DNA from: Actinomycetota bacterium
GTDB taxonomy: Bacteria; Actinomycetota; Acidimicrobiia; Acidimicrobiales; CADCSY01
Direction: 5' to 3'
DNA length: 64,000 nt
Assembly: GCA_004366205.1 (NCBI GenBank)
Contig: SIRW01000054.1
Span: 7,990 to 71,989 of the forward strand
How positions within the stretch are numbered: the stretch's first letter is position 1; every line of letters starts with the position of its first letter. Under the pieces are notes generated by a model. It was not told the origin of the DNA, searched no databases, and saw only the letters and a program-made list of their open reading frames with translations. This document shows, one piece after another, positions 21,987 to 40,691 of the stretch. Both the position numbers and the translations under genes were made by a program.

Positions 21987-22808
21987 CTAGGCGCCGGCTT
22001 CCTCGAGGGCGCGCCGGGTGAGGACCCGGGCGAGGTGGCGGCGGTACTCCTCGCTGGCGTTGAGGTCGGCGGTGGGCTCGGTGCCCTCGTCGGCCCGCTC
22101 GGCGGCCTCCGCGGCCGACGCCCCGCCGGCCAGCGCCTCCTCGACGGCGGTGGCCCGCAGCGGGGTGGTGCCCATGTTCACCAGCGCCACGCCGGTGGTG
22201 CCGTTGCGGACGGCAGCCACGCCGACGATCGCCCAGTCCTGGGCCCGCCGGTTGAACTTCTGGTACGACCAGCCCGCACCGGGCACCTTGGGCACGCGGA
22301 TCTCGGTGAGGAGCTCGTCGCCGGCGAGGGCGCTCTCGAGGAAGCCGGTGAAGAACTCGGTCGCCGCGATCTCGCGCTCGCCGTCCGGGCCCCGCGCCAC
22401 CAGCGTGCCGCCCAGGGCGAGCACGGCGGCGGGCAGGTCCGAGGCCGGGTCGGCGTGGGCCAGGCTGCCGCCGATCGTGCCCCGGTGGCGCACCTGCGGG
22501 TCGCCCACCAGGTGGGCCACGTGGCGGAGCATCGGGCACTGCTCGGCCAGCAGGTCGCTGGTCTCGAGGTCGTGGTGCCGGGTGAGCGCTCCGATGGCGA
22601 TCTGGTCGCCGGCGTCGCGGATGTAGCGCAGGTCGTCGAGGCGCCCGACGTCGACGAGCACGGCGGGTGTGGCGAGCCGCAGCTTCATGAGCGGCAGGAG
22701 CGAGTGCCCGCCGGCGAGGAGCTTGGCTTCGTCGCCGTGCTCGCCGAGGGCGGCGATCGCCTCGGCGGCCGAGCCGGCCCGCACGTAGTCGAACTTGGCG
22801 GGGATCAC
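21987..22808 (-). CDS. coxM: FAD-binding medium subunit (CoxM-like)
   Basis: GTG at 22808 forms a GTGA overlap with the coxL stop. LLAGGHSLLP and GTIGGSLAHADPASD FAD-binding blocks are present. Confidence 0.85.
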   Translation of the reverse strand: MIPAKFDYVRAGSAAEAIAALGEHGDEAKLLAGGHSLLPLMKLRLATPAVLVDVGRLDDLRYIRDAGDQIAIGALTRHHDLETSDLLAEQCPMLRHVAHLVGDPQVRHRGTIGGSLAHADPASDLPAAVLALGGTLVARGPDGEREIAATEFFTGFLESALAGDELLTEIRVPKVPGAGWSYQKFNRRAQDWAIVGVAAVRNGTTGVALVNMGTTPLRATAVEEALAGGASAAEAAERADEGTEPTADLNASEEYRRHLARVLTRRALEEAGA

Positions 22809-25186: not shown

Positions 25187-25656
25187 GACGCCGCTCCTTC
25201 GGCGGCGGCGAGCACGGCCTTCACGATGTTGTGGTAGCCGGTGCAGCGACACAGGTTGCCTTCGAGGCCCTCCCGCACCTCGGCCTCGGTGGGAGCCGGG
25301 TTCTCGTCGAGGAGCGACACGGCCGCCATGACCATGCCGGGCGTGCAGTAGCCGCACTGCAGGCCGTGATGCTGGCGGAACGCCTCCTGCATGGGGTGCA
25401 GCTGCCCGTCGCTGGCCAGGCCCTCGATGGTGGTGATCTCGGCGCCGTCGGCCTGGACGGCGAGCACGGTGCAGGACTTCACCGACTGGCCGTCGAGCAG
25501 CACGGTGCACGCGCCGCACGACGAGGTGTCGCAGCCGATGTTGGTGCCGGTGAGGCCCACCACCTCCCGCAGGTAGTGGACCAGGAGCGTGCGGGGCTCG
25601 ACCTCGTGCTCCTGCTTCGTGCCGTTGACGGTGACGGCGACCTTCACGTGCACCAC
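25183..25656 (-). CDS. coxS: [2Fe-2S]-binding small subunit (CoxS-like)
   Basis: [11 protein letters not shown] and CGYCTPG...CRCTGY cysteine clusters. A GAGAGGGG Shine-Dalgarno sequence lies just upstream of the tandem GTG codons at 25656/25653. Confidence 0.9.
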
Positions 25657-25742
25657 CCCTCTCAGTGCGCGGTGTCGGCTGTGGTCCCGCCATCATGCCG
25701 CGCCCGGACGGGCCGTGCCGCGGGTCCGACCCGACCGGCTCG

Positions 25743-26546
25743 CTAGGGCGTGAGGGTGCGCATGCCCCGCACGGCGAACACGAGCATGACCGCCGCGAGC
25801 CCCCCGATGGCCGCCAGGCCGGGCCAGGTGGACGACCAGGCGACGCCCTCGAGGAAGCCCTGGCGGGCCAGCTCGAGGATCTGCGAGACGGGGTTGAGGC
25901 GGGCGACCGGGTGGAGCCAGCCGGTGATGACCTCGAGGGGCGCCTGGGCGGTGGTGAGGAACAGGCCCACGAAGATGCCGACCTGGACGACGGGACCGGC
26001 GCTCTGGCTCTTGATCCGGTAGACGAGCCCGAGGGCCCACAGCCCGGCGACGGTCGCCACGCCGAGCGCGGCGATGAGCAGCGAGACGAGCCCGGGGACG
26101 CCGCCGGGCACGGCGGCCCCGCCCGCCAGGCCGACCGCGGTGACGAGGGCGAAGGTGATCAGCCCCCGGGCGGCGCCCGCCAGGAGCGATCCGCACATGA
26201 TCGCCCCCCGGGCGGCGGGCGACAGGAGCAGGCGGTCGAAGAACCCGGTCTCGAGGTCGCGCGCCACCGAGAAGGCGGTGCCGACCCCGGCGAAGCTGGC
26301 GCCCATGAGCACCGCCATCGGCGTGTACCAGCTGAGGACGTTGTCGGTGGCGAACCCCGGGATCTCGACGATGCCGCGGTACTGGCCGCTGAACGCGATG
26401 AGGAAGAACACGGGCATGACCACGGCAGGCACGAACGTGGCCGGCACCCGGCGGATGCCGACGAGGTTGCGCCACGCCAGCGCGGCCGCCACCGCCAGGG
26501 GGCGCCCGGCGACGCCGTGGTCGAAGGCGGTGCGGGCGGCGGTCAC
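25743..26546 (-). CDS. ABC-2 type transporter permease (second copy)
   Basis: GTG at 26546 forms a GTGA overlap. It has six hydrophobic segments and the ABC-2 block DLETGFFDRLLLSP, and is a paralog of the upstream permease. Confidence 0.75.
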   Translation of the reverse strand: MTAARTAFDHGVAGRPLAVAAALAWRNLVGIRRVPATFVPAVVMPVFFLIAFSGQYRGIVEIPGFATDNVLSWYTPMAVLMGASFAGVGTAFSVARDLETGFFDRLLLSPAARGAIMCGSLLAGAARGLITFALVTAVGLAGGAAVPGGVPGLVSLLIAALGVATVAGLWALGLVYRIKSQSAGPVVQVGIFVGLFLTTAQAPLEVITGWLHPVARLNPVSQILELARQGFLEGVAWSSTWPGLAAIGGLAAVMLVFAVRGMRTLTP

Positions 26547-27355
26547 GCGGGTGCCTCCGCCAGCCGGCGGCGCAGGGCGAGGAGCGAGGCGCCGACCGAC
26601 ACCACGCCGATGCCGGCGGCGACGGCGACCGCCACGGCGGCGTCGGTGGCGGCGAAGCCCTCGAGCAGCAGGCGCCGCTGCGCCTCGATCATCCACGACA
26701 CCGGGTTGACGCCGGCCACGGTCTGGTACCAGCCGGTCATGAGGCCCCGGGGGAAGAAGGCCGAGGACAGGAACAGCGTGACGAACAGAAGCGGGAACGA
26801 GCCCTGCACGGCCTCGGCCGACCCGGTGCGCAGCGCCAGGGCGACGCCGAACCCGCCGATGCCGACGCCGAGCAGCATCGCCGTGGCGACGAGCACCGCC
26901 ACCGTCACGGCGCCCCCGCCGATGCTGGCGCCGAACGGCAGGAGGATGAGCACGAACAGCACGGCCTGGGCGCCGCCCAGCGCCGCCGCGCCCGCCAGCC
27001 GGCCGACGAGGATCGAGATCCGGGACACCGGCGAGGAGATCAGCCGGTCGAAGAAGCCGTTCTCGATGTCGGTGGCCATCTCGGTGCCGGCGCTGATCGC
27101 CCCGAAGATCACGCCCTGCAGGATCGTGGCGGGCACGAGGAAGTCGAGGAACGAGTCGAACGGCGGGAAGCCGGGCAGGTTCGTCGCCCGCTGGAACGCC
27201 GCCGAGTTGAGGGCGGTGAAGAAGAGCGGGAAGAACATCGACGGGATCCACACCGTGGGCTGCCGGAGCAGGGCGACGACCGACCGGCGCGACAGCACCA
27301 GGGCCTGGAGGAGGGGCTGGCGGCGGTGCGCCCGCAGGAGCGCCACGGTGGTCAC
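26543..27355 (-). CDS. ABC-2 type transporter permease (first copy)
   Basis: 270-aa ORF with a DIENGFFDRLISSP block and multiple TM segments. Confidence 0.75.
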   Translation of the reverse strand: MTTVALLRAHRRQPLLQALVLSRRSVVALLRQPTVWIPSMFFPLFFTALNSAAFQRATNLPGFPPFDSFLDFLVPATILQGVIFGAISAGTEMATDIENGFFDRLISSPVSRISILVGRLAGAAALGGAQAVLFVLILLPFGASIGGGAVTVAVLVATAMLLGVGIGGFGVALALRTGSAEAVQGSFPLLFVTLFLSSAFFPRGLMTGWYQTVAGVNPVSWMIEAQRRLLLEGFAATDAAVAVAVAAGIGVVSVGASLLALRRRLAEAPA

Positions 27356-27362
27356 GGCGGGT

Positions 27363-28346
27363 TCACCCGCCGGTGGCGGCGGGTGTGCCGCCGCCGCCCG
27401 CCGGCTCCTCGGCGCCTTCGAGCCGGCGGCCCGTCGCCTCGGCGAACACGTCGTCGAGGCTCGGCTGGTTGAGCTCCATGTGGTTCACGCTGATGCCGGC
27501 GGCGTCGAGGGCCCGCACGGCGTCGGGAACGCGGGCGGCGCCGCCCTCGAGGCCGATGGCGACCTCGCCGGGGCCGGCGGGACGCTCCTCGCCGAAGCCG
27601 GCCAGGGCCGCCACGGCGGCGGCGTGATGGGCCTCGTCGACGGCGAGCAGCAGCGTGGGTGCGCCCACCTCGGACTTGAGCGCCCGCGGCTCCCCTTGGC
27701 GGACGATGCGGCCGTAGTCGATGATGGCGATGCGCCCGGCCAGCTGGTCGGCTTCCTCCAGGTACTGGGTGGTGAGCAGCACCGTGGTGCCCCGCTCCTG
27801 GTTGAGGGCCCGCACCTCCTCCCACAGGGCCACCCGGCTCATGGGGTCGAGGCCGGTGGTGGGCTCGTCGAGGAACAGCACCTCGGGCTCGTGGACGAGC
27901 GAGAGCGCCAGGTCGAGGCGCCGGCGCATGCCCCCCGAGTAGGTGCCGACGCGCCGGTCGGCGGCGGCGGTGAGGCCCACCCGCTCGAGCAGCTCGGCGC
28001 CCCGGCGATCGGCGTGCCGGCGGGGGATGCCGTGGAGCACGGCTTGGAGGCGCAGGAGCTCGGTGCCGGTCATCAGCGGGTCGATGGCGGCGTCCTGGAG
28101 GGCCACGCCGATGGCCCGGCGCACCCGGCCGGCCTCGCGCACGACGTCGAAGCCGGCGACGCGGGCCCGGCCGGCGGTGGGCTTCAGCAGCGTCGTGAGC
28201 ATGCGCACCGTCGTCGACTTGCCGGCCCCGTTGGGCCCGAGGAAGCCGAAGACCTCAGCGGGCTGCACCTCGAGGTCGACGCCGTCGACGGCGACGAGGT
28301 CGCCGAACCGCCGGACGAGGCCCTCGGCCTCGATGGGCGCCGTCAC
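27363..28346 (-). CDS. DrrA-family ABC transporter ATP-binding protein
   Basis: GTG at 28346 forms a GTGA overlap with the upstream large-subunit stop. Walker A GPNGAGKST, signature YSGGMRRRL, Walker B LFLDEPTTGLD. Confidence 0.85.
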   Translation of the reverse strand: MTAPIEAEGLVRRFGDLVAVDGVDLEVQPAEVFGFLGPNGAGKSTTVRMLTTLLKPTAGRARVAGFDVVREAGRVRRAIGVALQDAAIDPLMTGTELLRLQAVLHGIPRRHADRRGAELLERVGLTAAADRRVGTYSGGMRRRLDLALSLVHEPEVLFLDEPTTGLDPMSRVALWEEVRALNQERGTTVLLTTQYLEEADQLAGRIAIIDYGRIVRQGEPRALKSEVGAPTLLLAVDEAHHAAAVAALAGFGEERPAGPGEVAIGLEGGAARVPDAVRALDAAGISVNHMELNQPSLDDVFAEATGRRLEGAEEPAGGGGTPAATGG

Positions 28347-30655
28347 TCGGCGGATCCGGTGCCCGCCGCCGCCGGCCCGCTCGCGGGCGTGGGCGGCTCG
28401 CCCGCCCTGACGATCGCCCGCCACACGCGCTCGGGGGTGGCCGGCATGTCGAGGTGGCGCACGCCGAAGGGCGCCAGGGCGTCGACGACCGCGCTCTGCA
28501 CCGCGGGCGTGGCCCCGATCGTGCCCGACTCGCCGATGCCCTTGGCGCCCAGCGGGTTGACGGGCGTGGGGGTCTCCATGGGCACGACCTCGAAGGACGG
28601 CAGCTCGGCGGCGGACGGGAAGGCGTAGTCGGCCAGGTTGGCGGTGACGGGGTTGCCGTCGCCGTCGTAGCGGACCTCCTCCCACAGCGCCTGGGCCACG
28701 CCCTGGGCGATGCCGCCGTGGCGCTGGCCCTCGACGAGCAGGGGGTTGAGGATGCGGCCGGCGTCGTCGACCGTGACGATCCGCTCCAGCGTGACCTTGC
28801 CGGTCTCGGTGTCGACGGCGACGACGGCGACGTGGGCGCCGAAGGGGAACGTGGGGCTGGCGGCGTCGAACCGGGCGTCCTCGGCGAGGCCGTCCTCCCC
28901 CGCCGCCGCGGCGACGTCGGCCCAGGTGGCCGTCGCCGTGGGGGTGCCGGCCACGTGCCAGTGCCCGGCGTCGGTGTCGAGCACGAGGTCGTCGGGGTTG
29001 GCCTCGAGCACCTCGGCGGCGAGCTCCCGGGCGCGGTCGACGACCTTGCCGGCGGCCTCGTGGACGGCCACGCCGCCGAGCTGCAGCGAGCGCGAGCCCA
29101 TGGTGCCCTCACCCCTGGGCACCAGGTCGGTGTCGCCGTGGATGACCTCGATGCGGTCCAGGGGGATGCCGAGGCGGTCGGCCACGATCATCGCCCACGC
29201 GGTGTGGTGGCCCTGCCCGTGCGGGGAGGTGCCCGTGTAGACGACGGCCGAGCCGTCGGGCCGCACCTCGACCCGGGCGTCCTCGCCGCTCGGGGTGGGG
29301 CCGGCGGTGACCTCGACGTAGGTGGACACGCCGATGCCGAGCTGCACCCGCTCGCCCGCCTGGCGGCGGCGGGCCTGCTCGGCCCGCAGGTCGTCGTAGC
29401 CGGCGGCGGCCAGCGCCGTGTCGAGGGCGGTGCGGTAGTCGCCGCTGTCGTAGGTGGTGCCGACCGGCGTGGTGTACGGGAAGGCGTCGGGCGCGACGAG
29501 GTTGCGGCGCCGCACCTCGGCGGGGTCCATGCCGATCTCGGCGGCGAACAGGTCCATGGCCCGCTCGATGGCGGCGGCGGCCTCGGGCCGTCCGGCTCCG
29601 CGGTAGGCCATGGTGGGTGTGGTGTTGGTGACGACGCTGCGGGTGTCGCACTCGGCGCGGGGGATGGCGTAGGTGCCCGTCGTCATGAGCCGCGTCATGT
29701 AGGGCAGGACGGCGCCCAGCTTCGGGTAGGCGCCGGCGTCGGCCAGGACCTCGAGCCGGTAGGCCTCGACGGTGCCGTCGCGCCGGCCGCCGATGGTGAC
29801 GCGCTGCACCTGGCCCCGGCCGTGGCCCATGTTGAGCATGCTCTCGGTGCGGGTCTCGACCCAGCGCACCGGGCGACCCATCCGCTTCGCCAGCCAGCCG
29901 AGGAGGATCTCCTCGGTGTAGATGCCGATCTTGGCGCCGAAGCCGCCCCCGACGTCGGGCGCCACGACGCGGACCTGGCCCTCGTCGAGGCCGAGGCGGG
30001 CGACCACGGCGTCGCGGGCGCCCTGGGCGTTCTGGGTGGAGGTCCAGATCGTGAGCCGGCCGTCGTCGCCCCACGCCGCTGCCGTGGCCCGCACCTCGAG
30101 CGGGCACGGCGCGACCCGCTGGTTGACCAGCCGCTCGCTGACGACCACCTCGCAGCCCTCGAACAGCGCCTCGTCGCGCCCGAAGGCGAGCTCGAGCGCC
30201 ACGTTGGTGCCCACGTCGGGGAACAGGAGGGTGTCGCCGGCGAGGGCGGCCTCGGGGTCGACGACGGCGGGCAGGGGCTCGTAGTCGGGCCACACGAGCT
30301 CGGCGGCGTCGGCGCCCTGCGCGGCGGTGTCGGTGAGCACGACCGCCACCGGCTCGCCCACGTAGCGCACGGTGTCAACCGCGAGCCACGGCCGCAGCAT
30401 CTGCTGGTTCAGGATCGGGGTCTCCGGTGGGGCGGGCTCGAGGTCGACGTCGGCCCCGGTGACCACGGCGACGACCCCGTGCGCCCGCTCGGCCTCGGAG
30501 GTGTCGATCGAGGCGATTCGGGCGTGGGCGATCGTGGCGCGCACGAACGTGGCGTGCAGCGCCCCCTCGAGCTCCGGCACCCGCAGGCCGGCGACGTAGG
30601 TCCCGCCTCCGGTGAGGAACCTCGGGTCCTCGGTGCGGACGACCCGCGTGCCCAT
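28343..30655 (-). CDS. molybdopterin-binding large subunit, xanthine dehydrogenase/CoxL family (form-II type, orphan copy 2)
   Basis: ATG at 30655 (alternative GTG at 30664). [10 protein letters not shown] and [11 protein letters not shown] are present. By eye it is clearly the closest paralog of the 16550..18811 protein along its whole length. Confidence 0.85.
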   Translation of the reverse strand: MGTRVVRTEDPRFLTGGGTYVAGLRVPELEGALHATFVRATIAHARIASIDTSEAERAHGVVAVVTGADVDLEPAPPETPILNQQMLRPWLAVDTVRYVGEPVAVVLTDTAAQGADAAELVWPDYEPLPAVVDPEAALAGDTLLFPDVGTNVALELAFGRDEALFEGCEVVVSERLVNQRVAPCPLEVRATAAAWGDDGRLTIWTSTQNAQGARDAVVARLGLDEGQVRVVAPDVGGGFGAKIGIYTEEILLGWLAKRMGRPVRWVETRTESMLNMGHGRGQVQRVTIGGRRDGTVEAYRLEVLADAGAYPKLGAVLPYMTRLMTTGTYAIPRAECDTRSVVTNTTPTMAYRGAGRPEAAAAIERAMDLFAAEIGMDPAEVRRRNLVAPDAFPYTTPVGTTYDSGDYRTALDTALAAAGYDDLRAEQARRRQAGERVQLGIGVSTYVEVTAGPTPSGEDARVEVRPDGSAVVYTGTSPHGQGHHTAWAMIVADRLGIPLDRIEVIHGDTDLVPRGEGTMGSRSLQLGGVAVHEAAGKVVDRARELAAEVLEANPDDLVLDTDAGHWHVAGTPTATATWADVAAAAGEDGLAEDARFDAASPTFPFGAHVAVVAVDTETGKVTLERIVTVDDAGRILNPLLVEGQRHGGIAQGVAQALWEEVRYDGDGNPVTANLADYAFPSAAELPSFEVVPMETPTPVNPLGAKGIGESGTIGATPAVQSAVVDALAPFGVRHLDMPATPERVWRAIVRAGEPPTPASGPAAAGTGSAE

Positions 30656-30749
30656 GACGCTCACTGCCAACCCCCGTCTGCTCGCGGCCGGACGTGACTG
30701 GCGGGTCAGGCTAGCGGCCGCCCGCGGGGCGCCGGCACGGGCGGCGGGC

Positions 30750-31583
30750 TCACGCGGGCACGAAGGCGACCTGGAAGTCCACCGGGGCGTCGGGCCCGGG
30801 CACGAGCGCCCAGCCGGCCATGGCGGCGGGCTCTCCGAGCGGCGCCAGGTCGAACGTCCACCGGCCGGCGTCGCGGACCCCGGCGACGCAGTCGTCGCCG
30901 TCCCACTGGGGCGCGTCCGACCACGGCATCGCCTCCTCCTCCTGCCAGGTCGGGTCCAGGATGCGACAGAGGACGACCGAGGGATCACCGCTGAACGCCC
31001 GCTCACCCTCGGCGTCCTCGAGCAGCTCGAGCACCGTGCCGTCGCCGGACAGCCGCACGAAGCTGACCTTGTCGGCCTGCCCGACGCGGTTGCCCACGGG
31101 CATGGTGCCCTCGGGGACGCCCACGTGGGCGAACGGCGTGCCGCCCGTCCGGGCCGCCCAGCCGTACCCCGCCACCGACAGGGTGCCGCCGGAGCCCTCG
31201 CCGTCACCGGGCGTGAACCCGGCGGGCGGCGCCGCCGGCGGTGGACGGTCGGCCGGCGGCGGGGCCGCCACCGGCCCCGGAGCCGGCCCCGTCCCGGGGG
31301 CGGGGCGGGGGGCGGGCTGCAGCACGGGCACCTGCGGTTCGTCGGCGGCGAAGCCGGGCGGGGCCGTCACGCCGCCGTCGCCTCCGACGTCGCCCTCGCC
31401 GTTCCAGTCGGCACCCGGGGCGCCGCCTTGCCACGTGCCGAACGCCGCCTCGCGAGCGGGACGGTCCGGAGCCGGGAACACCGCCACGATGCCGAGGATG
31501 GCGACGACCGTGGCGGCCACGGGCCAGTAGCGCACCAGCCCGCGGCCGACGTCCCCGAGCGTGACCTGTGAAATTCCGCTCAT
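30750..31583 (-). CDS. membrane-anchored hypothetical protein with Pro-rich linker
   Basis: ATG at 31583 (MSGISQVTLGDVGRGLVRYWPVAATVVAILGIVAV = one TM). A Pro/Ala/Gly-rich spacer is followed by an acidic domain of about 130 aa of unknown family. The track ORF extends to 31664. Confidence 0.5.
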   Translation of the reverse strand: MSGISQVTLGDVGRGLVRYWPVAATVVAILGIVAVFPAPDRPAREAAFGTWQGGAPGADWNGEGDVGGDGGVTAPPGFAADEPQVPVLQPAPRPAPGTGPAPGPVAAPPPADRPPPAAPPAGFTPGDGEGSGGTLSVAGYGWAARTGGTPFAHVGVPEGTMPVGNRVGQADKVSFVRLSGDGTVLELLEDAEGERAFSGDPSVVLCRILDPTWQEEEAMPWSDAPQWDGDDCVAGVRDAGRWTFDLAPLGEPAAMAGWALVPGPDAPVDFQVAFVPA

Positions 31584-31670: not shown

Positions 31671-33893
31671 GTGACCGACACAGCCGAGCGCAGGCCCGTC
31701 GAGGGCGGGCGGACGTCACCCGTCGACGACCCGCGCGCCCGCAACGCCGCCACCGGCATCGCCGCCGCGCTGTTCGGCTACTGGGTGCTGCAGTGGCTGT
31801 GGCCCGCTCCCATCGGTGTCCTCGTCCAGGGCGTGGTGATCGGCGGGCTCACCGCCCTCATCGCCTTCGGCGTCGCCCTGGTGTACCGGGCCAACCGCAT
31901 CGTGAACTTCGCCGCCGGCGACCTCGGCGCCCTCCCCGCGGCGCTGGCGGTGCTGCTGATCGTCGGCCCGGGGCTGCCCTACTTCCTCGCCCTGCCGGCC
32001 GGCCTGGTCGCCGCGGTGGTGCTCGGTGCGGTGGTCGAGTTCCTCCTGATCCGGCGGTTCTTCCACTCCCCCCGCCTCGTGCTCACGGTGGTCACGATCG
32101 GTCTCGCCCTGCTGCTCGGCGTGCTGGGCACGCTGCTGCCCCAGGCCTTCGACATCCGCACACCGCCGCAGAGCTTCCCGTCGCCGTTCGACTTCTCGTT
32201 CTCGATCGGTCGCACGGTCTTCCACGGCAACGACGTGATCGCCATGCTGGCCGTGCCCGTGCTGATCGTCGGGCTCGGCGCCTTCTTCCGGTACACCAAC
32301 ATCGGCATCGCCGTGCGGGCGAGCGCCGAAAGCCCCGACCGGGCGTCGCTGCTGGGCGTGCCGGTGAAGCGCATCGAGACGATCGTGTGGGTCCTCGCCG
32401 CCGTGCTCGCCTTCGTCGCCGTCTTCCTGCGGGCCGGCATCGTCGGCCTGCCCTTCGGCCAGCTCCTCGGGCCGGCGATCCTCGTGCGCACCCTGGCCGC
32501 GGCGGTGATCGGCCGCCTCGAGAAGCTGCCGCACATCCTGGCCGCGTCGATCGCCCTGGGCATCCTCGAGGCGTCGATCCTGTTCCACACCGGCCGGGCG
32601 GCGCTGGTCGACCCCATCCTGTTCGTCGTCATCCTGGGCGCCCTCCTGCTCCAGCGCAGGAAGCGCACGGCGCGCGGCGACGAGACCTCCGCCTGGCAGG
32701 CGGCACGCGACGTGCGGCCCGTGCCGCGCGAGCTCGCCCACCTGCCCGAGGTCCGCTGGGGTCGCCGGGCGCTGCTCGGCGCCGTGGGCCTGTTCGCCGT
32801 CTCGCTGCCCCTCTGGCTGCCCGACGGGCGCCTGAACCTGGCCGGGGTGATCGTGCTGCTCTCCATCGTGGGCATCTCGCTCGTGGTCCTCACGGGCTGG
32901 GCCGGCCAGGTCAGCCTGGGCCAGATCGCCTTCTTCGGCATCGGCGCCGCCGTGGCCGGCTACCTGACGTCGGCGCAGGGCTGGGAGCTGTCGCTGGCCG
33001 TGCTCGCCGCGGGCCTGGCCGGGGCCGCGGCGGCCATGGCCATCGGCCTGCCGGCGCTGCGCATCCAGGGCCTGTACCTGGCCGTGGTCACGCTCGCGTT
33101 CGCCCTCATGACCTCGTCGTACCTGCTCGACCGCGAGTTCATCCACTGGCTCCCCGCCGGTCGCATCGAGCGCCCGCTGCTGTTCGGGCGCGTGGCGCTC
33201 GACACCGAGGCCCGCTTCTACTACCTGTGCCTCGCCGCGCTCGTGCTGGCCGTGGCGGCCGTCCACGGCCTGCGCCGCAGCCGCACGGGGCGGGTGCTCA
33301 TCGGCGTGCGCGAGAACGAGCGGGCGGCGCAGTCCTACGGCGTGAGCCCGGTCACGGCCAAGCTCACGGCCTTCGCCATCTCGGGGTTCCTCGCGGCGTT
33401 CGCGGGCGGCCTGTTCGTCCACCACCAGCAGGCGCTCGGCATCCAGCCCTACGGCGTGGGCCGCAGCTTCGCCATCTTCATCATGGTGGTCGTCGGCGGG
33501 CTGGGTTCGATCACCGGCGGGATCCTCGGGGTCGTGTTCATCGAGGGCACCCAGTACTTCCGGGCGATCTTCCCCGAGACGATCCGCAACGTGCTGGGGC
33601 TGCTCACGAGCTCGGTCGGGGTCATCCTGATCCTCCTGGTGATGCCCGGCGGCCTCGCCGGCGCCGTCTACGACCTGCGCGATCGCCTGCTGCGCCAGCT
33701 CGCCCGGCGGCGCGGCATCCTCGTGCCCAGCCTGGTCGCCGACATGCGCGCCGAGAGCACCGCCGGCGTCACCCTCGAGGCCCCCGGCCCGGACCGGCCA
33801 CCACCGGAGGTCGACGCCCGCGCGGTCGAGGAGGCCGCGTTCGCCCCGCCCGACGAGACCGTCGGCACGACCGCAGGGAGAGGAACGCCGTGA
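31671..33893 (+). CDS. fused LivH/LivM-type branched-chain amino acid ABC transporter permease
   Basis: 740-aa ORF. The N-half shows a LivH pattern (LVYRANRIVNFAAGD) and the C-half a LivM pattern (GWAGQVSLGQIAFFGIGA). GTG start. Confidence 0.8.
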   Translation: MTDTAERRPVEGGRTSPVDDPRARNAATGIAAALFGYWVLQWLWPAPIGVLVQGVVIGGLTALIAFGVALVYRANRIVNFAAGDLGALPAALAVLLIVGPGLPYFLALPAGLVAAVVLGAVVEFLLIRRFFHSPRLVLTVVTIGLALLLGVLGTLLPQAFDIRTPPQSFPSPFDFSFSIGRTVFHGNDVIAMLAVPVLIVGLGAFFRYTNIGIAVRASAESPDRASLLGVPVKRIETIVWVLAAVLAFVAVFLRAGIVGLPFGQLLGPAILVRTLAAAVIGRLEKLPHILAASIALGILEASILFHTGRAALVDPILFVVILGALLLQRRKRTARGDETSAWQAARDVRPVPRELAHLPEVRWGRRALLGAVGLFAVSLPLWLPDGRLNLAGVIVLLSIVGISLVVLTGWAGQVSLGQIAFFGIGAAVAGYLTSAQGWELSLAVLAAGLAGAAAAMAIGLPALRIQGLYLAVVTLAFALMTSSYLLDREFIHWLPAGRIERPLLFGRVALDTEARFYYLCLAALVLAVAAVHGLRRSRTGRVLIGVRENERAAQSYGVSPVTAKLTAFAISGFLAAFAGGLFVHHQQALGIQPYGVGRSFAIFIMVVVGGLGSITGGILGVVFIEGTQYFRAIFPETIRNVLGLLTSSVGVILILLVMPGGLAGAVYDLRDRLLRQLARRRGILVPSLVADMRAESTAGVTLEAPGPDRPPPEVDARAVEEAAFAPPDETVGTTAGRGTP

Positions 33894-36800
33894 GCGACAC
33901 CGCACGCGCGACCCCGGCGCGCCGGTCCTGGCTGGCCGGCATCACGGGCGGGGCCCCGGCGGCGCCGCTGCTGCTGCTGTTCGGCCTCAACGCCGTCGAC
34001 GAGCTGGACCGCTCGGCGTTCGGCGTCCTCGTGCCCGAGATCCGCGACGCCTTCGAGCTCGACAACGAGGGCATCTTCACCGTCATCGCCCTCGTCGCCG
34101 TGGCCGCCCTCGCCGGCCAGGTGCTCATCGGCTATTTCGCCGACAGGTTCTCGCGGGTGCGGATCGCCGTGCTCGGTGCCTCGACCTGGGGCGCGTTCAC
34201 CTTGTTCACCGGGCTGGTTCCCGCCGTCGCCCTGCTGGTGGTCGTGCGGGCCTTCACGGCCGTGGGCCGCGCCGTCAACGGGCCCACCCACAACTCGCTC
34301 CTCGCCGACTACTACCCGCCCGAGGTGCGCACCAAGGTGTACGGCTTCCACCGGGTGGCCGAGTCCGTCGGCCAGTTCGTCGGCCCGCTCGCCGGCGGCG
34401 GGCTGGCCCTGGCCATCGGCACCTGGCGGGCGCCGTTCCTCGTCTTCTGGGTGCCGACGGCCGTGCTCGTCATCCTGGCGCTGGCCATGCTGCGCGACCC
34501 GGTCCGGGGAGGCCACGAGCGGCGGGCCATGGGCGCCTCCGACGACGCCGTCGAGACCGAGGAGGCCGCGCCCTCCCTCGGCGAAGCGTGGCGGATCTGC
34601 TACCAGGTCCGGACGCTTCGCCGCATCTGGTACTCGCTGCCGTTCCTGGCCGGCGCCTTCGTGGGGCTGGGCGCCGTGTACGCCGTCTACTACGACGACC
34701 TGTTCGGCCTCAACGAGCTCCAGCGGGGCATGGTCGCGGCGGTCACCGAGCCATTCCAGATCGTTGGGGTCTTCGTCGGGATCCCGATCGCCACCCGCTT
34801 GGCGCTCCGCAGCCCCGGCCTGGTCCTCAAGTTCATCGCCGTGGTGGGCGTGCTCGTCGCCGCGGCCATCACCCTGTTCGCCTTCGCACCCAGCCTGCCG
34901 CTGGCGATCGCCGCCAACATCCTGATCGCCGCGCCGCTCGCCGTCGTGGTGCCGGGCATCTACGCCGTGCTGTCGATGGCGATCCCGCCCCGGGCGCGGG
35001 CCCTCGGGTTCGCCATCGGGTCGCTCTACGTCATCCCCGGACTGGCGATCCTGCCGATCATCGGCGGCCTCGCCGACGACGTCGGCATCCGCACCGCGGT
35101 GCTGTTCCTCGTCCCGATCTTCGGCATCGGCGCCGCCCTCATCGCCTCCGCCGGCGCCTTCGTCGACGCCGACATCCACAAGGTCCGCACCTCCACCGTC
35201 GCCCAGTCCGAGGTGCGCGCCGCCCGGCTGCGCGGCGAGTCGAAGCTCCTGCTGGTGCGGGACCTCGACGTCAGCTACGGCCAGGTGCAGGTGCTGTTCG
35301 GCGTGAACTTCGAGATCGACGAGGGCGAGATCGTGGCCCTGCTCGGCACGAACGGCGCCGGCAAGTCCACCCTGCTGCGGGCGATCTCCGGGCTGGTCGA
35401 GCCCTCCGCGGGCGCCGTGGTGTTCGACGGGGCCGACATGACCTACGCCACCCCGCCCGAGATCGCGGCGCGCGGCGTCGTGCAGGTGCCCGGCGGCAAG
35501 GGCGTGTTCCCGGGCCTGACGGTCGCCGAGAACCTGAAGATCGCCGGGTGGCTCTACCAGCGCGAGCACGACTACCTGAAGCAGGCGACCGAGCAGGTCC
35601 TCGAGTACTTCCCGGTGCTGCGCGAGCGCTGGGACCAGCCTGCCGGCAACCTCTCGGGCGGCGAGCAGCAGATGCTCACCCTCGGCCAGGCGTTCATCGC
35701 CCGCCCCCGCCTCTTGATGATCGACGAGCTGTCGCTGGGGCTGGCCCCGACCATCGTGGAGCAGCTGCTCGGGATCGTGCGGGCCATCCGGGAGCGGGGC
35801 ACCACGATCATCCTCGTCGAGCAGTCCGTGAACGTGGCGCTGACGATCGCCGAGACCGCCTACTTCATGGAGAAGGGCGAGATCCGCTTCAACGGCCCGA
35901 CCAGCGAGCTGCTGGAGCGCCCCGACATCCTGCGCTCGGTGTTCCTCGAGGGCGCCGGCGCCGTCCTCGGTGGTGACGCCGGGGGCGACGGCAACGGTGA
36001 CCGGCGCGGCGGTGGGCGGGGGCCACGAGCGGTGCCCGCCCGGGCACGCCGCAGCCCGGCCGACAGCAACGGCGCGCCCCCGCCGCTGCAGGTGCGGGGC
36101 ATCGGTCGCAGCTTCGGCGGCGTGCGCGCCGTGCACGACGTGACCTTCGAGCTCGGACGGGGCGAGATCCTCGGGATCATCGGACCGAACGGCGCGGGCA
36201 AGACCACGCTGTTCGACCTCATCAGCGGCTACCTCGTGCCCGACGCCGGCACCGTCCTGCTGAACGGCGAGGACGTCACGCCGCTGACGGCCCACGGCCG
36301 GGCCCTGCTCGGCCTCGGCCGCTCGTTCCAGGACGCCCGCCTGTTCCCCGCCCTGAGCGTGGCCGAGACCATCGCCCTGGCCCTCGAGCGCCGGGCCGAG
36401 GTGCGCGACCCCGTCGCCGCCGCCCTGCGGTTGCCGGCGGTCCTCGACGCCGAGGCCCGGATCACCGAGCGGGTGGACGAGCTCATCGAGCTCATGGGCC
36501 TCGGGGCGTTCGCCGACAAGTTCGTGTCCGAGCTGTCGACCGGCAGCCGGCGCATCGTCGACCTGGCCTGCGTGCTCGCTCACGAGCCCGACGTGATCCT
36601 CTTCGACGAGCCGTCGTCGGGCATCGCCCAGCGCGAGACCGAGGCGCTCGGTCCCCTTCTCGAGCGCATCCGCGACCACACCGGCGCCAGCCTGCTCGTC
36701 ATCGAGCACGACATGCCGCTCATCACGTCGATCTCGGACCGGATGCTCGCGCTCGAGCTCGGCCAGCTCGTCGTCGAGGGCGACCCCCGCGAGGTGATCG

Positions 36801-36988
36801 AGCACCCGCGGGTCGTGGCGTCCTACCTGGGCACCAGCGACGACGTCATCTTCCGCTCCGGGGACCGAACGGGCAGCCCGGCGCCGGCCCCGGCCCGTGC
36901 CGGTACGACCGGCAGCGCCAGCAGCACGGCCCGCAGGCGACGCCAGCCGCTGCGGGCCCGTTCCACCACCGACAAGGGGGTTCGCTGA
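33890..36988 (+). CDS. MFS-domain / LivF-like ATPase / LivG-like ATPase fusion protein
   Basis: GTG at 33890 forms a GTGA overlap, with a GGGAGAGG Shine-Dalgarno sequence upstream. There is no in-frame stop for 1032 codons. MFS motifs GYFADRFSRVRI and RAFTAVGRAVNGP are present. ABC 1 has GTNGAGKST/LSGGEQQML and ABC 2 has GPNGAGKTT/LSTGSRRIV/ASYLG. Confidence 0.8.
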   Translation: MSDTARATPARRSWLAGITGGAPAAPLLLLFGLNAVDELDRSAFGVLVPEIRDAFELDNEGIFTVIALVAVAALAGQVLIGYFADRFSRVRIAVLGASTWGAFTLFTGLVPAVALLVVVRAFTAVGRAVNGPTHNSLLADYYPPEVRTKVYGFHRVAESVGQFVGPLAGGGLALAIGTWRAPFLVFWVPTAVLVILALAMLRDPVRGGHERRAMGASDDAVETEEAAPSLGEAWRICYQVRTLRRIWYSLPFLAGAFVGLGAVYAVYYDDLFGLNELQRGMVAAVTEPFQIVGVFVGIPIATRLALRSPGLVLKFIAVVGVLVAAAITLFAFAPSLPLAIAANILIAAPLAVVVPGIYAVLSMAIPPRARALGFAIGSLYVIPGLAILPIIGGLADDVGIRTAVLFLVPIFGIGAALIASAGAFVDADIHKVRTSTVAQSEVRAARLRGESKLLLVRDLDVSYGQVQVLFGVNFEIDEGEIVALLGTNGAGKSTLLRAISGLVEPSAGAVVFDGADMTYATPPEIAARGVVQVPGGKGVFPGLTVAENLKIAGWLYQREHDYLKQATEQVLEYFPVLRERWDQPAGNLSGGEQQMLTLGQAFIARPRLLMIDELSLGLAPTIVEQLLGIVRAIRERGTTIILVEQSVNVALTIAETAYFMEKGEIRFNGPTSELLERPDILRSVFLEGAGAVLGGDAGGDGNGDRRGGGRGPRAVPARARRSPADSNGAPPPLQVRGIGRSFGGVRAVHDVTFELGRGEILGIIGPNGAGKTTLFDLISGYLVPDAGTVLLNGEDVTPLTAHGRALLGLGRSFQDARLFPALSVAETIALALERRAEVRDPVAAALRLPAVLDAEARITERVDELIELMGLGAFADKFVSELSTGSRRIVDLACVLAHEPDVILFDEPSSGIAQRETEALGPLLERIRDHTGASLLVIEHDMPLITSISDRMLALELGQLVVEGDPREVIEHPRVVASYLGTSDDVIFRSGDRTGSPAPAPARAGTTGSASSTARRRRQPLRARSTTDKGVR

Positions 36989-38808
36989 TGAGCAAGATCG
37001 ACGACGTCTCCCTCGGGACGGTCCTGCGGGGGGTGCGCCGCTACCAGCCCTACCTGCTGGTGGTGGCGGCCGTGCTGCTCGTGGTCGCCTTCACCCCGGG
37101 CACGCCCGGTCCCGACGAGCAGGCCGTCGGCACCGTGGGCGACGGGCCCGGCGGGGCCGGATCCGACGTCGTGACCGGCGACCGCGACTGGGACCTCGAC
37201 GGCGACGGCGAACCCGACGACCCCGACCGGGCGCGGACCGGGCCGGGCGCCGGCGCCGGACCGCGCGGCGGCGGGGGGCGGGGCGGCGCCGCCGGTCAGG
37301 ACGGCGAGGAGGCCGTCCGCCAGCGGGCGGCCCAGGGCGGCATGGTCGCGAACTGCGACCCGGCGACCGGGCGGATCGCCATCCCCACCCGCCACGCCCC
37401 GCCGTGCGTGCCGGCCCACACGGGCGACAACGGAGGCGCCACCTACCAGGGCGTCACCGGCGACAAGATCCGCGTGGCCGTGTACCTCGCCCAGGGCAAC
37501 CCGGCGGCCGATGCGATCCTCGCCGCCGCCGGCGCCGACGACGACCGCGAGGAGGTCATCGCCCAGCACGAGCAGTACCGCGAGTTCTACCTGGCGCACT
37601 ACGAGCAGTACGGGCGCGACGTCGAGCTCGTCTACATCGACGGCAGCGGCCCCGCCGAGGACGACGCCGTCGGGCGCGCCGATGCCCGCCGGGTGATCGA
37701 CGCGGGGGTGTTCGCCTCGATCAACGCCCCCAACAACGCCTACGTGGACGAGCTCGTGGCTCGGGGCATCATGTGCTTCTGCACGGTGTCGCTGCCCGTC
37801 GAGTTCTACCACCAGCGGGCGCCGTTCGTGTGGAGCACGCTGATGGCCTCGACCGAGGCGTACGTGCACCGCGCCGAGTACGTGGGCAAGCGCCTGGCCG
37901 GCCGCCCCGCCGAGCACGCCGGCGACCCCGTGCTGGCCACCCAGGAGCGGCGGTTCGGCCTGCTCTACTACGAGACCCCCGCCGGCGAGTACAAGGCGGG
38001 CATCGACTTCTTCGAGCGCGAGCTGGCCCGCTACGGCGTGCGCCTCGCCAACCGGCTCGCCTACGAGGGCTTCCCCAACATCGCCGCCACCCAGCAGCAG
38101 GCTCGCCCGCTGATCCAGCGGATGATCCAGGACAACGTGACCTCGATCATCTTCGCCGGCGACCCCTTCGGGCCGATCTTCTTCACCCAGGAGGCCACCC
38201 GGCAGCGCTACTTCCCCGAGTGGATCATCACCGGCTCGGCGCTCACCGACACGAGCTTCTTCGCCCGCACCTACGACCCCGCCCAGTGGCGCAACGCCTT
38301 CGGCGTGTCGATGCTGTCGGCCCGCCTGCCCGAGGCCCAGAGCGAGACCATGCGCCTGCTGCAGTGGCACTTCGGCCGTGGGCCCGAAGCCGAGGGGACC
38401 TACGGCGTGATCCGGGGACCGTGGGAGAACTTCTACCGGGGCGTGCACCTGGCCGGGCCGAACCTGAACCCGGGCACGTTCCGCGACGGGATGTTCAACG
38501 CTCCGCCGTCCGGCGTCGGGGGCATCACCAGCCCCCAGATGTCGTTCGGTCGCCACGTGTGGCCGTGGGACAACTACCTCGCGTTCGATGACATGACCGA
38601 GATCTGGTGGGACCCGCAGGCCCGGGGTGAGGACGAGATCGGCAACGACGGCATCGGCCTGTACCGCTTCGTCGAGATGGGCCGGCGCTACCTGCCGGGG
38701 CAGTGGCCCGACGGCCCGCCGCGCGCCTTCGACCCGGCCAACACCGTCACGATCTACGACCAGCCGCCCGAGGCCGACCGCTGGCCGGAGTACCCGCCGC
38801 CGCGCTGA
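36988..38808 (+). CDS. membrane-anchored periplasmic-binding-protein-like component (putative substrate-binding protein)
   Basis: ATG overlaps the upstream TGA (TGATG). It has an N-terminal TM (YLLVVAAVLLVVAF) and a Gly/Asp-rich linker. The body of about 450 aa loosely resembles a type-1 PBP (GDKIRVAVY...GRDVELVYIDG). Family assignment is by context. Confidence 0.55.
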   Translation: MSKIDDVSLGTVLRGVRRYQPYLLVVAAVLLVVAFTPGTPGPDEQAVGTVGDGPGGAGSDVVTGDRDWDLDGDGEPDDPDRARTGPGAGAGPRGGGGRGGAAGQDGEEAVRQRAAQGGMVANCDPATGRIAIPTRHAPPCVPAHTGDNGGATYQGVTGDKIRVAVYLAQGNPAADAILAAAGADDDREEVIAQHEQYREFYLAHYEQYGRDVELVYIDGSGPAEDDAVGRADARRVIDAGVFASINAPNNAYVDELVARGIMCFCTVSLPVEFYHQRAPFVWSTLMASTEAYVHRAEYVGKRLAGRPAEHAGDPVLATQERRFGLLYYETPAGEYKAGIDFFERELARYGVRLANRLAYEGFPNIAATQQQARPLIQRMIQDNVTSIIFAGDPFGPIFFTQEATRQRYFPEWIITGSALTDTSFFARTYDPAQWRNAFGVSMLSARLPEAQSETMRLLQWHFGRGPEAEGTYGVIRGPWENFYRGVHLAGPNLNPGTFRDGMFNAPPSGVGGITSPQMSFGRHVWPWDNYLAFDDMTEIWWDPQARGEDEIGNDGIGLYRFVEMGRRYLPGQWPDGPPRAFDPANTVTIYDQPPEADRWPEYPPPR

Positions 38809-38815
38809 CCGCCGG

Positions 38816-40024
38816 TCAGCGGCCGCGGGCCTGCGGGTCGTCGAGGGGTATGAGCTCGCCGCCCTCGACGGCTCGCAGGCGGCGGGCCAGGGCCACGAGC
38901 TCGCCGGGCTCGACGGTGCCGTAGACCCGCACGAAGGCACCGCCACCCAGGTGGGTGCGCACCAGCGGCCCGAACGGCGTCAGCAGGACCTGGACGCGCC
39001 CGAGCTGGCCCGCCGCTCGCTGCTCGCCGCCGCGGTCGTCGAACGGCGCGCCGCCGCCCAACGTCGAGCCCTGCTCGACGACGAGCAGGTCGGGGCCGCG
39101 GGTGAGCACGTCCATGACCGACGCCACGCGGTCCCCCCGCCGCAGCGGGTCGGTGAACGCCTCGGTCTGGGGAGGCACGACCGCGTAGCGGCCGCCGTAC
39201 CGCCAGCCGGCAGGTGGCGCGTCGAGCTCCCAGAAGACCCCCGGCGCCCGGCTGCCCTCGGCCAGGCGCTGCACCGAGCCGCCTCCCTGGCCGACCGGCA
39301 CCGTCTGATCCCCGACGGCGAAGCGGTCGCCCGCGAGCTCGACGTCCTCGTCCACCGCCGTGGCGACCCTTCGCAACAGGGTACGACCGCCGGCGACGAG
39401 CACCTCCTCCAGCACGAGCCCGGCCTCGTCGATGCAGGAGTCGGCCCAGTCACCACCGCCCGCGTCAGCGGGGGCGGGCTCGCCGACCGGCCGGAGCACC
39501 GATCCCGCCGACAGCAGCTCGGCCGACCGGTACACCTGGCAGTCGCGGCCGGCGACCCGCCGGCGCTCCCGGGGCTGGAGGGCGCCGGCTTCGACGGCGG
39601 CGTCGAGCACGGCGTCGACCCGCAGGTCGGACACGGCGACACCCGGGGGCAGGGCGAGCACCGATCGCTGACCCGCCTCACCGGCGGCGGCGATGCGGCC
39701 GAACGTCGTGGTCTGCACCGAGACGGGCGCGCCCTCGACCGTGTCGCCGTCGCGCGTCTCGAGGCGGCTGTCGAAGGGGCGGCGCACCTCGAGCACGTCG
39801 GTGCTCACCACCCGCCGGTCGGCGGGGCCGCTCTCGACGCGGTGAACGATGCGGTAGCTCGCCGGCGTGCGGGTGATGGCGAGGCGCGGCCCGCCCGCCT
39901 CGGCCACGAGCTCGGAGCCGGCCCGGTGGTCGTCGCCGCCGCTGGGACGCACGACGAGCGCGGCGACCACGAGGGCGCCGAGCGCGAGGGCGACGGCGAT
40001 CAGCAGGGTGGGCCGGCGGGTCAT
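38816..40024 (-). CDS. membrane-anchored hypothetical protein
   Basis: ATG at 40024 (MTRRPTLLIAVALALGALVVAALVV = signal/anchor). The extracytoplasmic region of about 375 aa has no motif I recognise. The rest of track ORF 38816..40921 overlaps msrA out of frame. Confidence 0.55.
   Translation of the reverse strand: MTRRPTLLIAVALALGALVVAALVVRPSGGDDHRAGSELVAEAGGPRLAITRTPASYRIVHRVESGPADRRVVSTDVLEVRRPFDSRLETRDGDTVEGAPVSVQTTTFGRIAAAGEAGQRSVLALPPGVAVSDLRVDAVLDAAVEAGALQPRERRRVAGRDCQVYRSAELLSAGSVLRPVGEPAPADAGGGDWADSCIDEAGLVLEEVLVAGGRTLLRRVATAVDEDVELAGDRFAVGDQTVPVGQGGGSVQRLAEGSRAPGVFWELDAPPAGWRYGGRYAVVPPQTEAFTDPLRRGDRVASVMDVLTRGPDLLVVEQGSTLGGGAPFDDRGGEQRAAGQLGRVQVLLTPFGPLVRTHLGGGAFVRVYGTVEPGELVALARRLRAVEGGELIPLDDPQARGR

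Positions 40025-40043: not shown

Positions 40044-40691
<648 letters not shown>

Follow-up and report, generated by a model that had tools for sequence, protein, structure and literature searches.

Why should a secondary-transporter fold be joined covalently to the motor of a primary importer? The question is raised by a locus on contig SIRW01000054.1 of an Actinomycetota bacterium of the order Acidimicrobiales (GenBank assembly GCA_004366205.1), of which we analyzed positions 7,990 to 71,989 of the forward strand, a stretch of 64,000 nucleotides that is referred to below as the window and numbered from its first letter. On the + strand of the window, at 33890..36988, a single gene encodes a 1032-aa polypeptide in which a major facilitator superfamily (MFS) domain precedes a LivF-like and a LivG-like nucleotide-binding domain (NBD) of the ATP-binding cassette (ABC) type. 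No other superfamilies of transporters are as large as the ABC importers and the MFS carriers, and the two have been treated as separate machines with different energy sources. Our analysis shows that the fusion serves as the energising subunit in a Liv-type ABC importer of the HAAT family that is encoded by three genes, and that this importer is standard equipment in the class Acidimicrobiia. The preliminary description of the locus had left the function of the MFS domain open between an extra translocation pathway, a regulatory or anchoring module and a substrate sensor; the evidence presented here favours a carrier that still functions and is linked to the system's binding protein.

A single gene recurrent in Acidimicrobiia

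According to the open reading frame (ORF) list of the window, the frame of the fusion runs from the GTG at 33890 to the TGA at 36986-36988 and specifies 1032 amino acids, with no in-frame stop, as had been described. A Shine-Dalgarno-like sequence, GGGAGAGG (33875..33882, +), can be read 7 nt 5′ of this GTG, and the start codon overlaps the stop codon of the preceding permease gene (TGA, 33891-33893) as GTGA, a 4-nt overlap that is also present in locus L001. The stop codon of the fusion, in turn, shares bases with the ATG of the next gene (TGATG, 36986-36990). Both the ribosome-binding sequence and the overlapping stop and start codons at the two junctions agree with the preliminary description.

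The DNA in this region has a G+C content of 73%, and in DNA of this composition long open frames arise by chance. The frame of the fusion contains 1731 codons without a stop and reaches back into the permease gene (31793-36988, +), and an antisense ORF of 1045 aa overlaps the fusion gene (33668-36805, -). The codon-position composition sets the fusion gene apart from chance ORFs of this kind: the G+C content at third codon positions (GC3) is 0.97-1.00 in the MFS, LivF and LivG parts, compared with 0.48 where the same frame extends upstream of 33890 and with 0.75 for the antisense ORF. By GC3, the upstream extension and the antisense ORF are shadow ORFs of high-GC DNA. No sign of a frame change was found in the codon-position composition at the MFS-to-ATPase junction. 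A promoter and terminator scan returned nothing informative in this high-GC DNA.

A search of 5.8 billion proteins identified more than 120 full-length homologues of approximately 970-1050 aa, 61-73% identical to the fusion, all of which contain MFS_1 and ABC_tran domains and which, where named, belong to Acidimicrobiales, Acidimicrobiia or Actinomycetota. When one genome was scanned for each GTDB species, the fusion was confirmed in at least 563 species-level genomes; the carriers listed are mostly Acidimicrobiia and include Microthrixaceae, Iamiaceae, Ilumatobacteraceae, Acidimicrobiaceae, Ferrithrix and the complete genome IMCC26256 (CP011489). Isolates of Nonomuraea have a 913-aa version (compare locus L080). 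Among the carriers, IMCC26256 and Nonomuraea sediminis (WP_214327543.1) can be cultivated. The MFS-LivF-LivG frame is uninterrupted in 121 of the 157 loci that were fetched. Outside Acidimicrobiia the spread is poorly mapped, as a genome scan seeded with distant fusions, which used Walker-A peptides, returned mostly ordinary LivG and LivF genes from many phyla, and only L158-L161 are fusions. When the MFS part alone was searched against 1.84 billion representative sequences, 308 matches were obtained at E < 1e-30, with architectures that comprised MFS-LivF-LivG, MFS-LivF, stand-alone MFS, a few permease-MFS readthroughs and one possible LivG-MFS.

In long-read metagenome-assembled genomes (MAGs), the LivG part may be split or separate (L242, 10529-11052; L243, 10190-10984; L115, L150 and L157), and in several of these loci the pieces abut in different frames. 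Locus L132 (8010-14429) is rearranged, with MFS-LivF, a gap of approximately 1.6 kb, the permease and a separate LivG; it is recorded as a 'Burkholderiales' MAG, its sequence is Acidimicrobiia-like, and the record is probably a binning error.

It could be argued that a frameshift, a mis-assembly or a gene-calling error has joined separate MFS, livF and livG genes, given that high-GC DNA yields long spurious ORFs, such as the two described above, and that split versions occur in some long-read MAGs. We reject this explanation as extremely improbable because the fused frame recurs across the homologues, in at least 563 genomes and in 121 independent loci that include the complete genome CP011489, as well as in the Nonomuraea isolates. 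Also against it, GC3 is 0.97 across three folded domains compared with 0.48 upstream in the same frame, and the connection between the last transmembrane (TM) helix of the MFS domain, TM12, and the first NBD is modelled with confidence by AlphaFold2. The hidden stop or frameshift between the MFS and ATPase parts that the preliminary description had asked to be excluded was not seen.

In the databases, the fusion is named 'MFS transporter' by NCBI and 'ABC-type branched-chain amino acid transport ATPase component / MFS family permease' by JGI. MFS-only proteins of approximately 450 aa (P0398, P0409, P0412-P0414 and others) are named 'branched-chain amino acid transport system ATP-binding protein' by JGI, which is evidently an annotation error transferred from the fused family and will propagate. 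Full-text literature searches found no description of an MFS-LivF/LivG fusion, with a passing mention elsewhere being possible; each part belongs to a known superfamily, and the combination of MFS with LivF and LivG seems unstudied.

Domain organization of the fusion protein

The 1032-aa product begins with an MFS domain of 12 helices, which a rigid helix joins to a LivF-like NBD; a Gly/Arg linker then leads to a LivG-like NBD, and the protein ends in a disordered tail. The AlphaFold2 model of the protein was built on 51 homologues and has a mean predicted local distance difference test score (pLDDT) of 83. Pfam recognizes MFS_1 with 128.6 bits, against a gathering cut-off of 33.4, and ABC_tran twice (E 6.6e-60).

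The MFS domain (33890..35152, +; residues 1-421) is modelled with 12 TM helices at pLDDT >90, which span residues 25-421 in a 6+6 arrangement with a long central cytoplasmic loop at residues 201-240. Motif A of the domain, GYFADRFSRVRI, is located between TM2 and TM3 and includes D85, R86 and R89, which are invariant in the 51 sequences and common to free paralogues of the domain; the second motif quoted in the preliminary description, RAFTAVGRAVNGP, is also present. Lys and Arg are enriched in the predicted inside loops. Based on the location of motif A between TM2 and TM3, both termini of the domain are cytoplasmic, and the attachment of cytoplasmic ATPases to its C-terminus is topologically sound. 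The domain had been called a bona fide MFS member, subject to profile or structure comparison, and the MFS_1 profile, the sequence matches to solved MFS structures given below and the confident 12-helix model all place it there. A Foldseek search with the complete 1032-aa model matched only chains of tandem-NBD proteins and P-glycoprotein and gave nothing on the MFS part, so that the relationships of this domain are drawn from sequence searches.

A connecting helix (35162..35230, +; residues 425-447; pLDDT of approximately 90) leads from TM12 and is confidently modelled to run directly into the LivF-like NBD (35243..35959, +; residues 452-690), which carries the Walker A sequence GTNGAGKST, the signature LSGGEQQML and the Walker B residues D612-E613, and which matches PDB entry 1ji0 (E 2.5e-55). 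The linker between the NBDs (35960..36085, +; residues 691-732) is disordered, rich in Gly, Arg and Pro, and high in G+C at the first and second codon positions, with pLDDT <50 at residues 686-726. It is followed by the LivG-like NBD (36086..36841, +; residues 733-984), with the Walker A sequence GPNGAGKTT, the signature LSTGSRRIV, the Walker B residues D906-E907, H940 and the C-terminal motif ASYLG. The C-terminal tail (36842..36985, +; residues 985-1032) is disordered, rich in Arg, Ala, Ser, Thr and Pro, and poorly conserved; pLDDT is <50 at residues 982-1032 and the consensus of the homologues is undefined in the tail. In both NBDs, the residues of Walker A, the signature, Walker B and the switch are retained as is usual for LivF and LivG, and all of the ATPase motifs originally quoted were found.

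The nearest NCBIfam models are UrtE/LivF for residues 453-687 and LivG/UrtD for residues 733-982, which, together with the model, confirms the reported order of a LivF-type before a LivG-type NBD, the reverse of the usual one, with a Gly/Arg linker between them. A BCA_ABC_TP_C match at the end of the second NBD (residues 961-984) scores 23.1 bits, below its cut-off of 25.5; this domain (PF12399) is precomputed for most homologues of the fusion. The cut-offs of the E. coli equivalogs are missed (300.7 versus 362 bits for LivG, and 254.5 versus 441 bits for LivF). By these profile scores, the NBDs belong to the LivG and LivF types at the family level and not as orthologues.

Permease and anchored binding protein

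The first gene of the operon (31671..33893, +; GC3 0.97) encodes a 740-aa ABC permease in which Pfam recognizes BPD_transp_2 (PF02653) in two stretches (E 1.2e-57). Since NCBIfam assigns residues 51-325 to a UrtB/LivH-like and residues 441-664 to a UrtC/LivM-like model, the fused LivH/LivM permease that had been proposed upstream of the fusion is indeed encoded there. A search by sequence found no solved relative of this permease.

The third gene (36988..38808, +) encodes a 606-aa protein, p606, for which no Pfam, NCBIfam or PDB match was obtained by sequence. Its 560 homologues are all named 'hypothetical' and a few of them carry Peripla_BP_6, a domain (PF13458) found at E <= 0.01 in 8 of 42 homologues tested. 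The AlphaFold2 model (pLDDT 82) consists of a TM helix at residues 9-35, a disordered acidic and Gly-containing linker of approximately 80 residues (36-118), a two-lobed alpha/beta fold of the type I periplasmic binding proteins and a beta-rich C-terminal extension. Foldseek matches the model to substrate-binding proteins (SBPs) of the LIVBP type (4evs, 4eyg, 4xfk, 1z15 and 7s6e; E of approximately 1e-13, TMt 0.51-0.72), among which are aromatic-acid binders of R. palustris, Leu/Ile/Val binders, UrtA and an actinobacterial fatty-acid binder. Because of these structural matches, p606 is predicted to be the membrane-anchored binding protein of the transporter system, which bears out the earlier suggestion of a binding-protein-like gene at this position.

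Four cysteines of p606 are invariant and occur in pairs (C123, C140, C263 and C265). Residues 505-606 form a conserved Trp/Asp-rich beta extension that seems to be absent from the LIVBP-type structural matches, which are much shorter. Some operons have two or three binding-protein paralogues (L002, 8146-9930, 9949-11769 and 12953-14713; L115, 11247-12644 and 12979-14322), which suggests several ligands for one transporter.

In nearly all related loci the three genes stand in the same order, with the permease first, then the fusion and then the binding protein; the permease gene is located directly 5′ of the fusion in nearly all of them and the binding-protein gene 3′ in most. No fourth conserved operon gene was found, these three being the only widely conserved neighbours.

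Kinship and conservation of the MFS domain

By sequence, the solved structures nearest to the MFS part are the bacterial Spinster homologue HnSpns (6e8j; E 3e-13, N-terminal half only), SPNS2, EfpA and DgoT. The best curated family is TIGR00893, the D-galactonate/anion:cation symporters, with 86.1 bits against a cut-off of 395, and the second-best is the aromatic-acid symporter family; all of these matches are far below cut-off. Residues D40/R41 and R120 of the domain align with D41/R42 and R122 of HnSpns, and the motif DYYPPxxR is present after TM4 in both. The domain thus looks ACS/Spinster-like and is filed here in neither family.

The ratio of nonsynonymous to synonymous substitution rates (dN/dS) among closely related loci is 0.05-0.33 for the fused MFS domain, 0.03-0.20 for the permease and 0.06-0.30 for the binding protein; the fused MFS domain is under purifying selection as strong as that of the permease. 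A total of 82 positions are conserved jointly in the fused forms, in a clade without NBDs that is described in the next section and in free paralogues. They include motif A (D85/R86/R89), D37/E38/D40 in TM1, R120/R127 in TM4, H134 and the DYY..R147 motif. Conserved in the fused forms only are S229 and W234 in the central loop and P409 and G414 in TM12, while K431, V432, A438, V442, R446 and G449 of the connecting helix are conserved in the fused but not in the NBD-less forms. Such a clustering of the fused-only positions would be expected of a defined contact with the NBDs.

The main clade of free paralogues, sampled at 19 loci, is 42-50% identical to the MFS domain of the window and occurs in the same genomes as the fusion (L010/L084 and L065/L086).

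A lineage that has shed the permease and the NBDs at the locus

In loci L108 and L123, a stand-alone MFS gene, whose product is 53-54% identical to the MFS domain of the window, has a gene for a p606-like binding protein directly 3′, and no permease or NBD gene was found within 8 kb of the pair. By distance, the closest MFS relative of both is the fused form L121, not the main clade of free paralogues. The form is not confined to these two loci: at the 90% identity level, at least 54 clusters of proteins of stand-alone length (430-480 aa) share 65-100% identity with the L123 MFS protein, and the pair was present in five of five further contigs examined; in one of them, L241, there is a 4-nt overlap between the MFS gene and the binding-protein gene. 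Between L108 and L123, dN/dS is 0.21 for the MFS gene and 0.29 for the binding-protein gene. Based on the adjacency, the kinship to L121 and the dN/dS values, this lineage has shed the permease and both NBDs at the locus, while its MFS and binding-protein genes have stayed side by side under purifying selection. The existence of such a lineage hints that the MFS protein and the binding protein work together. No MFS-SBP fusion was found among 150 representatives checked.

A gene of the peptide methionine sulfoxide reductase (PMSR) type is located downstream of the pair in all four loci with enough sequence, L238-L241 (11859-12491 in L238, 5399-6052 in L240 and 7018-7650 in L241; cut at the contig end in L239). 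In the window, a PMSR gene lies just beyond the binding-protein gene (40044-40691, -). Since PMSR lies beyond the binding-protein gene in both, this neighbourhood is conserved between the window and the NBD-less lineage.

Proposed role of the MFS domain and alternative explanations

We tentatively propose, as a possibility and not yet as the probable answer, that the MFS domain is a working carrier beside LivHM, tied to the same binding protein, with the ATP-driven and gradient-driven routes coupled or cross-regulated. The MFS module would still be an alternating-access carrier and not a dead anchor. Placed beside the LivHM channel and functionally tied to the anchored binding protein, it would offer the ligand, probably a carboxylate, a gradient-driven route in addition to the ATP-driven route through LivHM, and the conserved central cytoplasmic loop and connecting helix of the fused forms might couple or cross-regulate both. 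A working carrier is favoured by the dN/dS values of the fused MFS domain, the 82 jointly conserved positions and the catalytic motifs kept by both NBDs; the tie to the binding protein is drawn from the NBD-less lineage, and the physical coupling from the fused-only positions and the confidently modelled helix. As to the substrates, there are weak hints of carboxylates, for example amino or aromatic acids, because the best curated MFS matches are organic-anion symporters and the top matches of the modelled binding protein are aromatic-acid and amino-acid binders. A stronger version, in which the MFS domain would be a binding-protein-dependent secondary carrier and the anchored LIVBP-like protein would feed both the MFS domain and LivHM, we consider quite improbable.

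Several points weigh against a carrier tied to the binding protein. Classical proton coupling is not assured, because the position of E129, the proposed proton-coupling Glu of HnSpns, is occupied by Arg127. MFS carriers are of the rocker-switch type, and we know of no MFS protein that uses a binding protein. What has been described as an emerging theme is that SBPs associate with secondary transporters of the elevator type (PMC12344293). In the 19 loci of the main free paralogue clade, no binding-protein, Liv-type or other conserved neighbour gene was found, so the free paralogues offer no hint of a substrate. As for the NBD-less lineage, the absence of ABC genes was seen at the locus only, and its binding protein may serve an ABC system encoded elsewhere; the adjacency of the MFS and binding-protein genes may be inherited rather than functional. 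Finally, part of the 'MFS-LivF only' class may be due to long-read frameshift errors and not to biology.

An MFS domain that no longer translocates could instead act as a membrane sensor or brake, a 'transceptor' that responds to ligand, membrane potential or lipid state and tunes ATP hydrolysis by the NBDs, or as a scaffold that stabilizes the complex. MFS proteins are often extended by regulatory domains, and importer NBDs commonly have such domains fused to them (MalK, MetN); moreover, a rigid, conserved helix forms the link to LivF, and the fused-only conserved positions are on the cytoplasmic face. However, the full hallmarks of a carrier are kept identically in fused and free forms, and the MFS domain persists under purifying selection after the loss of both NBDs, which is unexpected for a pure regulator or anchor of NBDs. 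On balance, we regard a sensor or scaffold as somewhat unlikely. We also considered the MFS domain as a substitute for a missing permease half and rejected it, both the LivH-like and the LivM-like halves being present.

That the MFS domain survives without NBDs, and that free paralogues with the same core occur in the same genomes without Liv-type genes or conserved neighbours, would also suit an independent carrier that was fused for co-expression. In such a case, the fusion would set stoichiometry and co-localization only. The carrier would be neither mechanically coupled to the ATPases nor served by the binding protein, and it would move either the importer's substrate, with low affinity, or another compound, e.g., an outgoing metabolic product. 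This explanation is unlikely in our judgement: it is opposed by the constant position of the MFS domain, directly N-terminal to LivF in all 121 MFS-LivF-LivG loci and in the MFS-LivF forms, by the loop and helix residues conserved in fused forms only, and by the binding-protein gene, which stays directly downstream after the loss of the ABC genes and is translationally coupled in L241.

If the MFS domain is a working carrier tied to the binding protein, the Acidimicrobiia complex would be a hybrid primary/secondary importer; if it depends on the binding protein, the MFS and binding-protein clade would contain the first binding-protein-dependent MFS transporter, a class beside ABC, TRAP, TTT and TAXI-GltS. 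A class-wide covalent union of ABC and MFS components under purifying selection offers a natural system in which to study physical coupling or cross-regulation of ATP-driven and gradient-driven routes, and the MFS and binding-protein pair makes it testable whether an extracytoplasmic binding protein can serve a rocker-switch MFS carrier. Soils, lakes, oceans and wastewater all harbour abundant Acidimicrobiia, and the mislabelling of their main Liv-type uptake system ('MFS transporter', 'hypothetical', 'ATP-binding protein') distorts the metabolic inference made from metagenomes.

Genomic surroundings of the operon

Downstream of the operon, the window encodes a 354-aa predicted membrane-anchored protein with no Pfam match (38816-39880, -), which is unrelated to the 336-aa protein that follows the operon in L001. 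On the other side, two paralogous molybdopterin large subunits of the xanthine-dehydrogenase/aldehyde-oxidase type (22805-25696, -; 28343-31207, -) flank a DrrA/DrrB-like ABC-2 exporter pair (26543-27355, -; 27363-28685, -), and the whole block is divergently transcribed from the transporter operon.

Comparison with known systems

A mycobacterial precedent for an MFS carrier gene next to that of a membrane-tethered extracytoplasmic ligand-binding protein is LprG-Rv1410c (P55), in which the two proteins work together; there, however, lipids are exported to a lipoprotein whose fold is unrelated, and no ABC component takes part. The best whole-model structural matches of the fusion are the actinobacterial importer subunits OppD (Rv1281c) of M. 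tuberculosis and DppD, which likewise carry two NBDs on one polypeptide for a two-domain permease. These proteins differ from the fusion in that they belong to the PepT family, have no membrane domain attached and contain Fe-S or other inserts.

The Spinster and ACS carriers (HnSpns 6e8j, SPNS2, EfpA and DgoT) share with the MFS domain the 12-TM fold, motif A, the Asp-Arg of TM1 and the Arg of TM4. Here, in contrast, the domain is covalently joined to two ABC ATPases, the similarity is distant, and the curated scores are far below cut-off; the residue set of the Spinster family (TC 2.A.1.49) is incomplete, its TM4 Glu being replaced by Arg127.

The binding-protein-dependent transporters listed to date are ABC, TRAP, TTT and TAXI-GltS, the last of which was proposed in 2025 from co-localization, translational coupling and fusions (PMC12344293). 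As in TRAP, TTT and TAXI-GltS, one clade here has adjacent carrier and binding-protein genes, sometimes coupled, with no ATPase. Compared with TAXI-GltS, this clade offers adjacency and translational coupling, two of the three lines of evidence, and no fusion. The parts are non-homologous to those of the three systems, consisting of a rocker-switch MFS carrier and a LIVBP-type binding protein, and the dependence on the binding protein is putative. In place of the TRAP and TTT parts (DctQM/TctAB and DctP/TctC/TAXI), Pfam recognizes only MFS_1 and, in homologues, Peripla_BP_6; the resemblance is one of analogy only.

The closest counterparts of the whole system are the HAAT importers (LivJ/K-LivHMGF, TC 3.A.1.4; Urt, Bra, Nat and the R. 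palustris Cou/Hba systems), with which it shares two BPD_transp_2 membrane domains, a LivG-like NBD (with a C-terminal BCA motif that scores just below the cut-off in the window protein) together with a LivF-like NBD, a binding protein of the type I LIVBP fold and a translationally coupled operon. It differs from them in that one polypeptide contains both LivH and LivM, and a second joins the NBDs in the order F-G, the reverse of livGF, and carries an N-terminal 12-TM MFS domain, in place of the canonical layout of separate subunits. Additionally, p606 is approximately 250 aa longer, TM-anchored, provided with a beta-rich C-terminal extension and missed by Pfam, and none of the members scores above the curated equivalog cut-offs for LivG or LivF. 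Component by component, the system works like a HAAT importer, from which it departs in the layout of its subunits.

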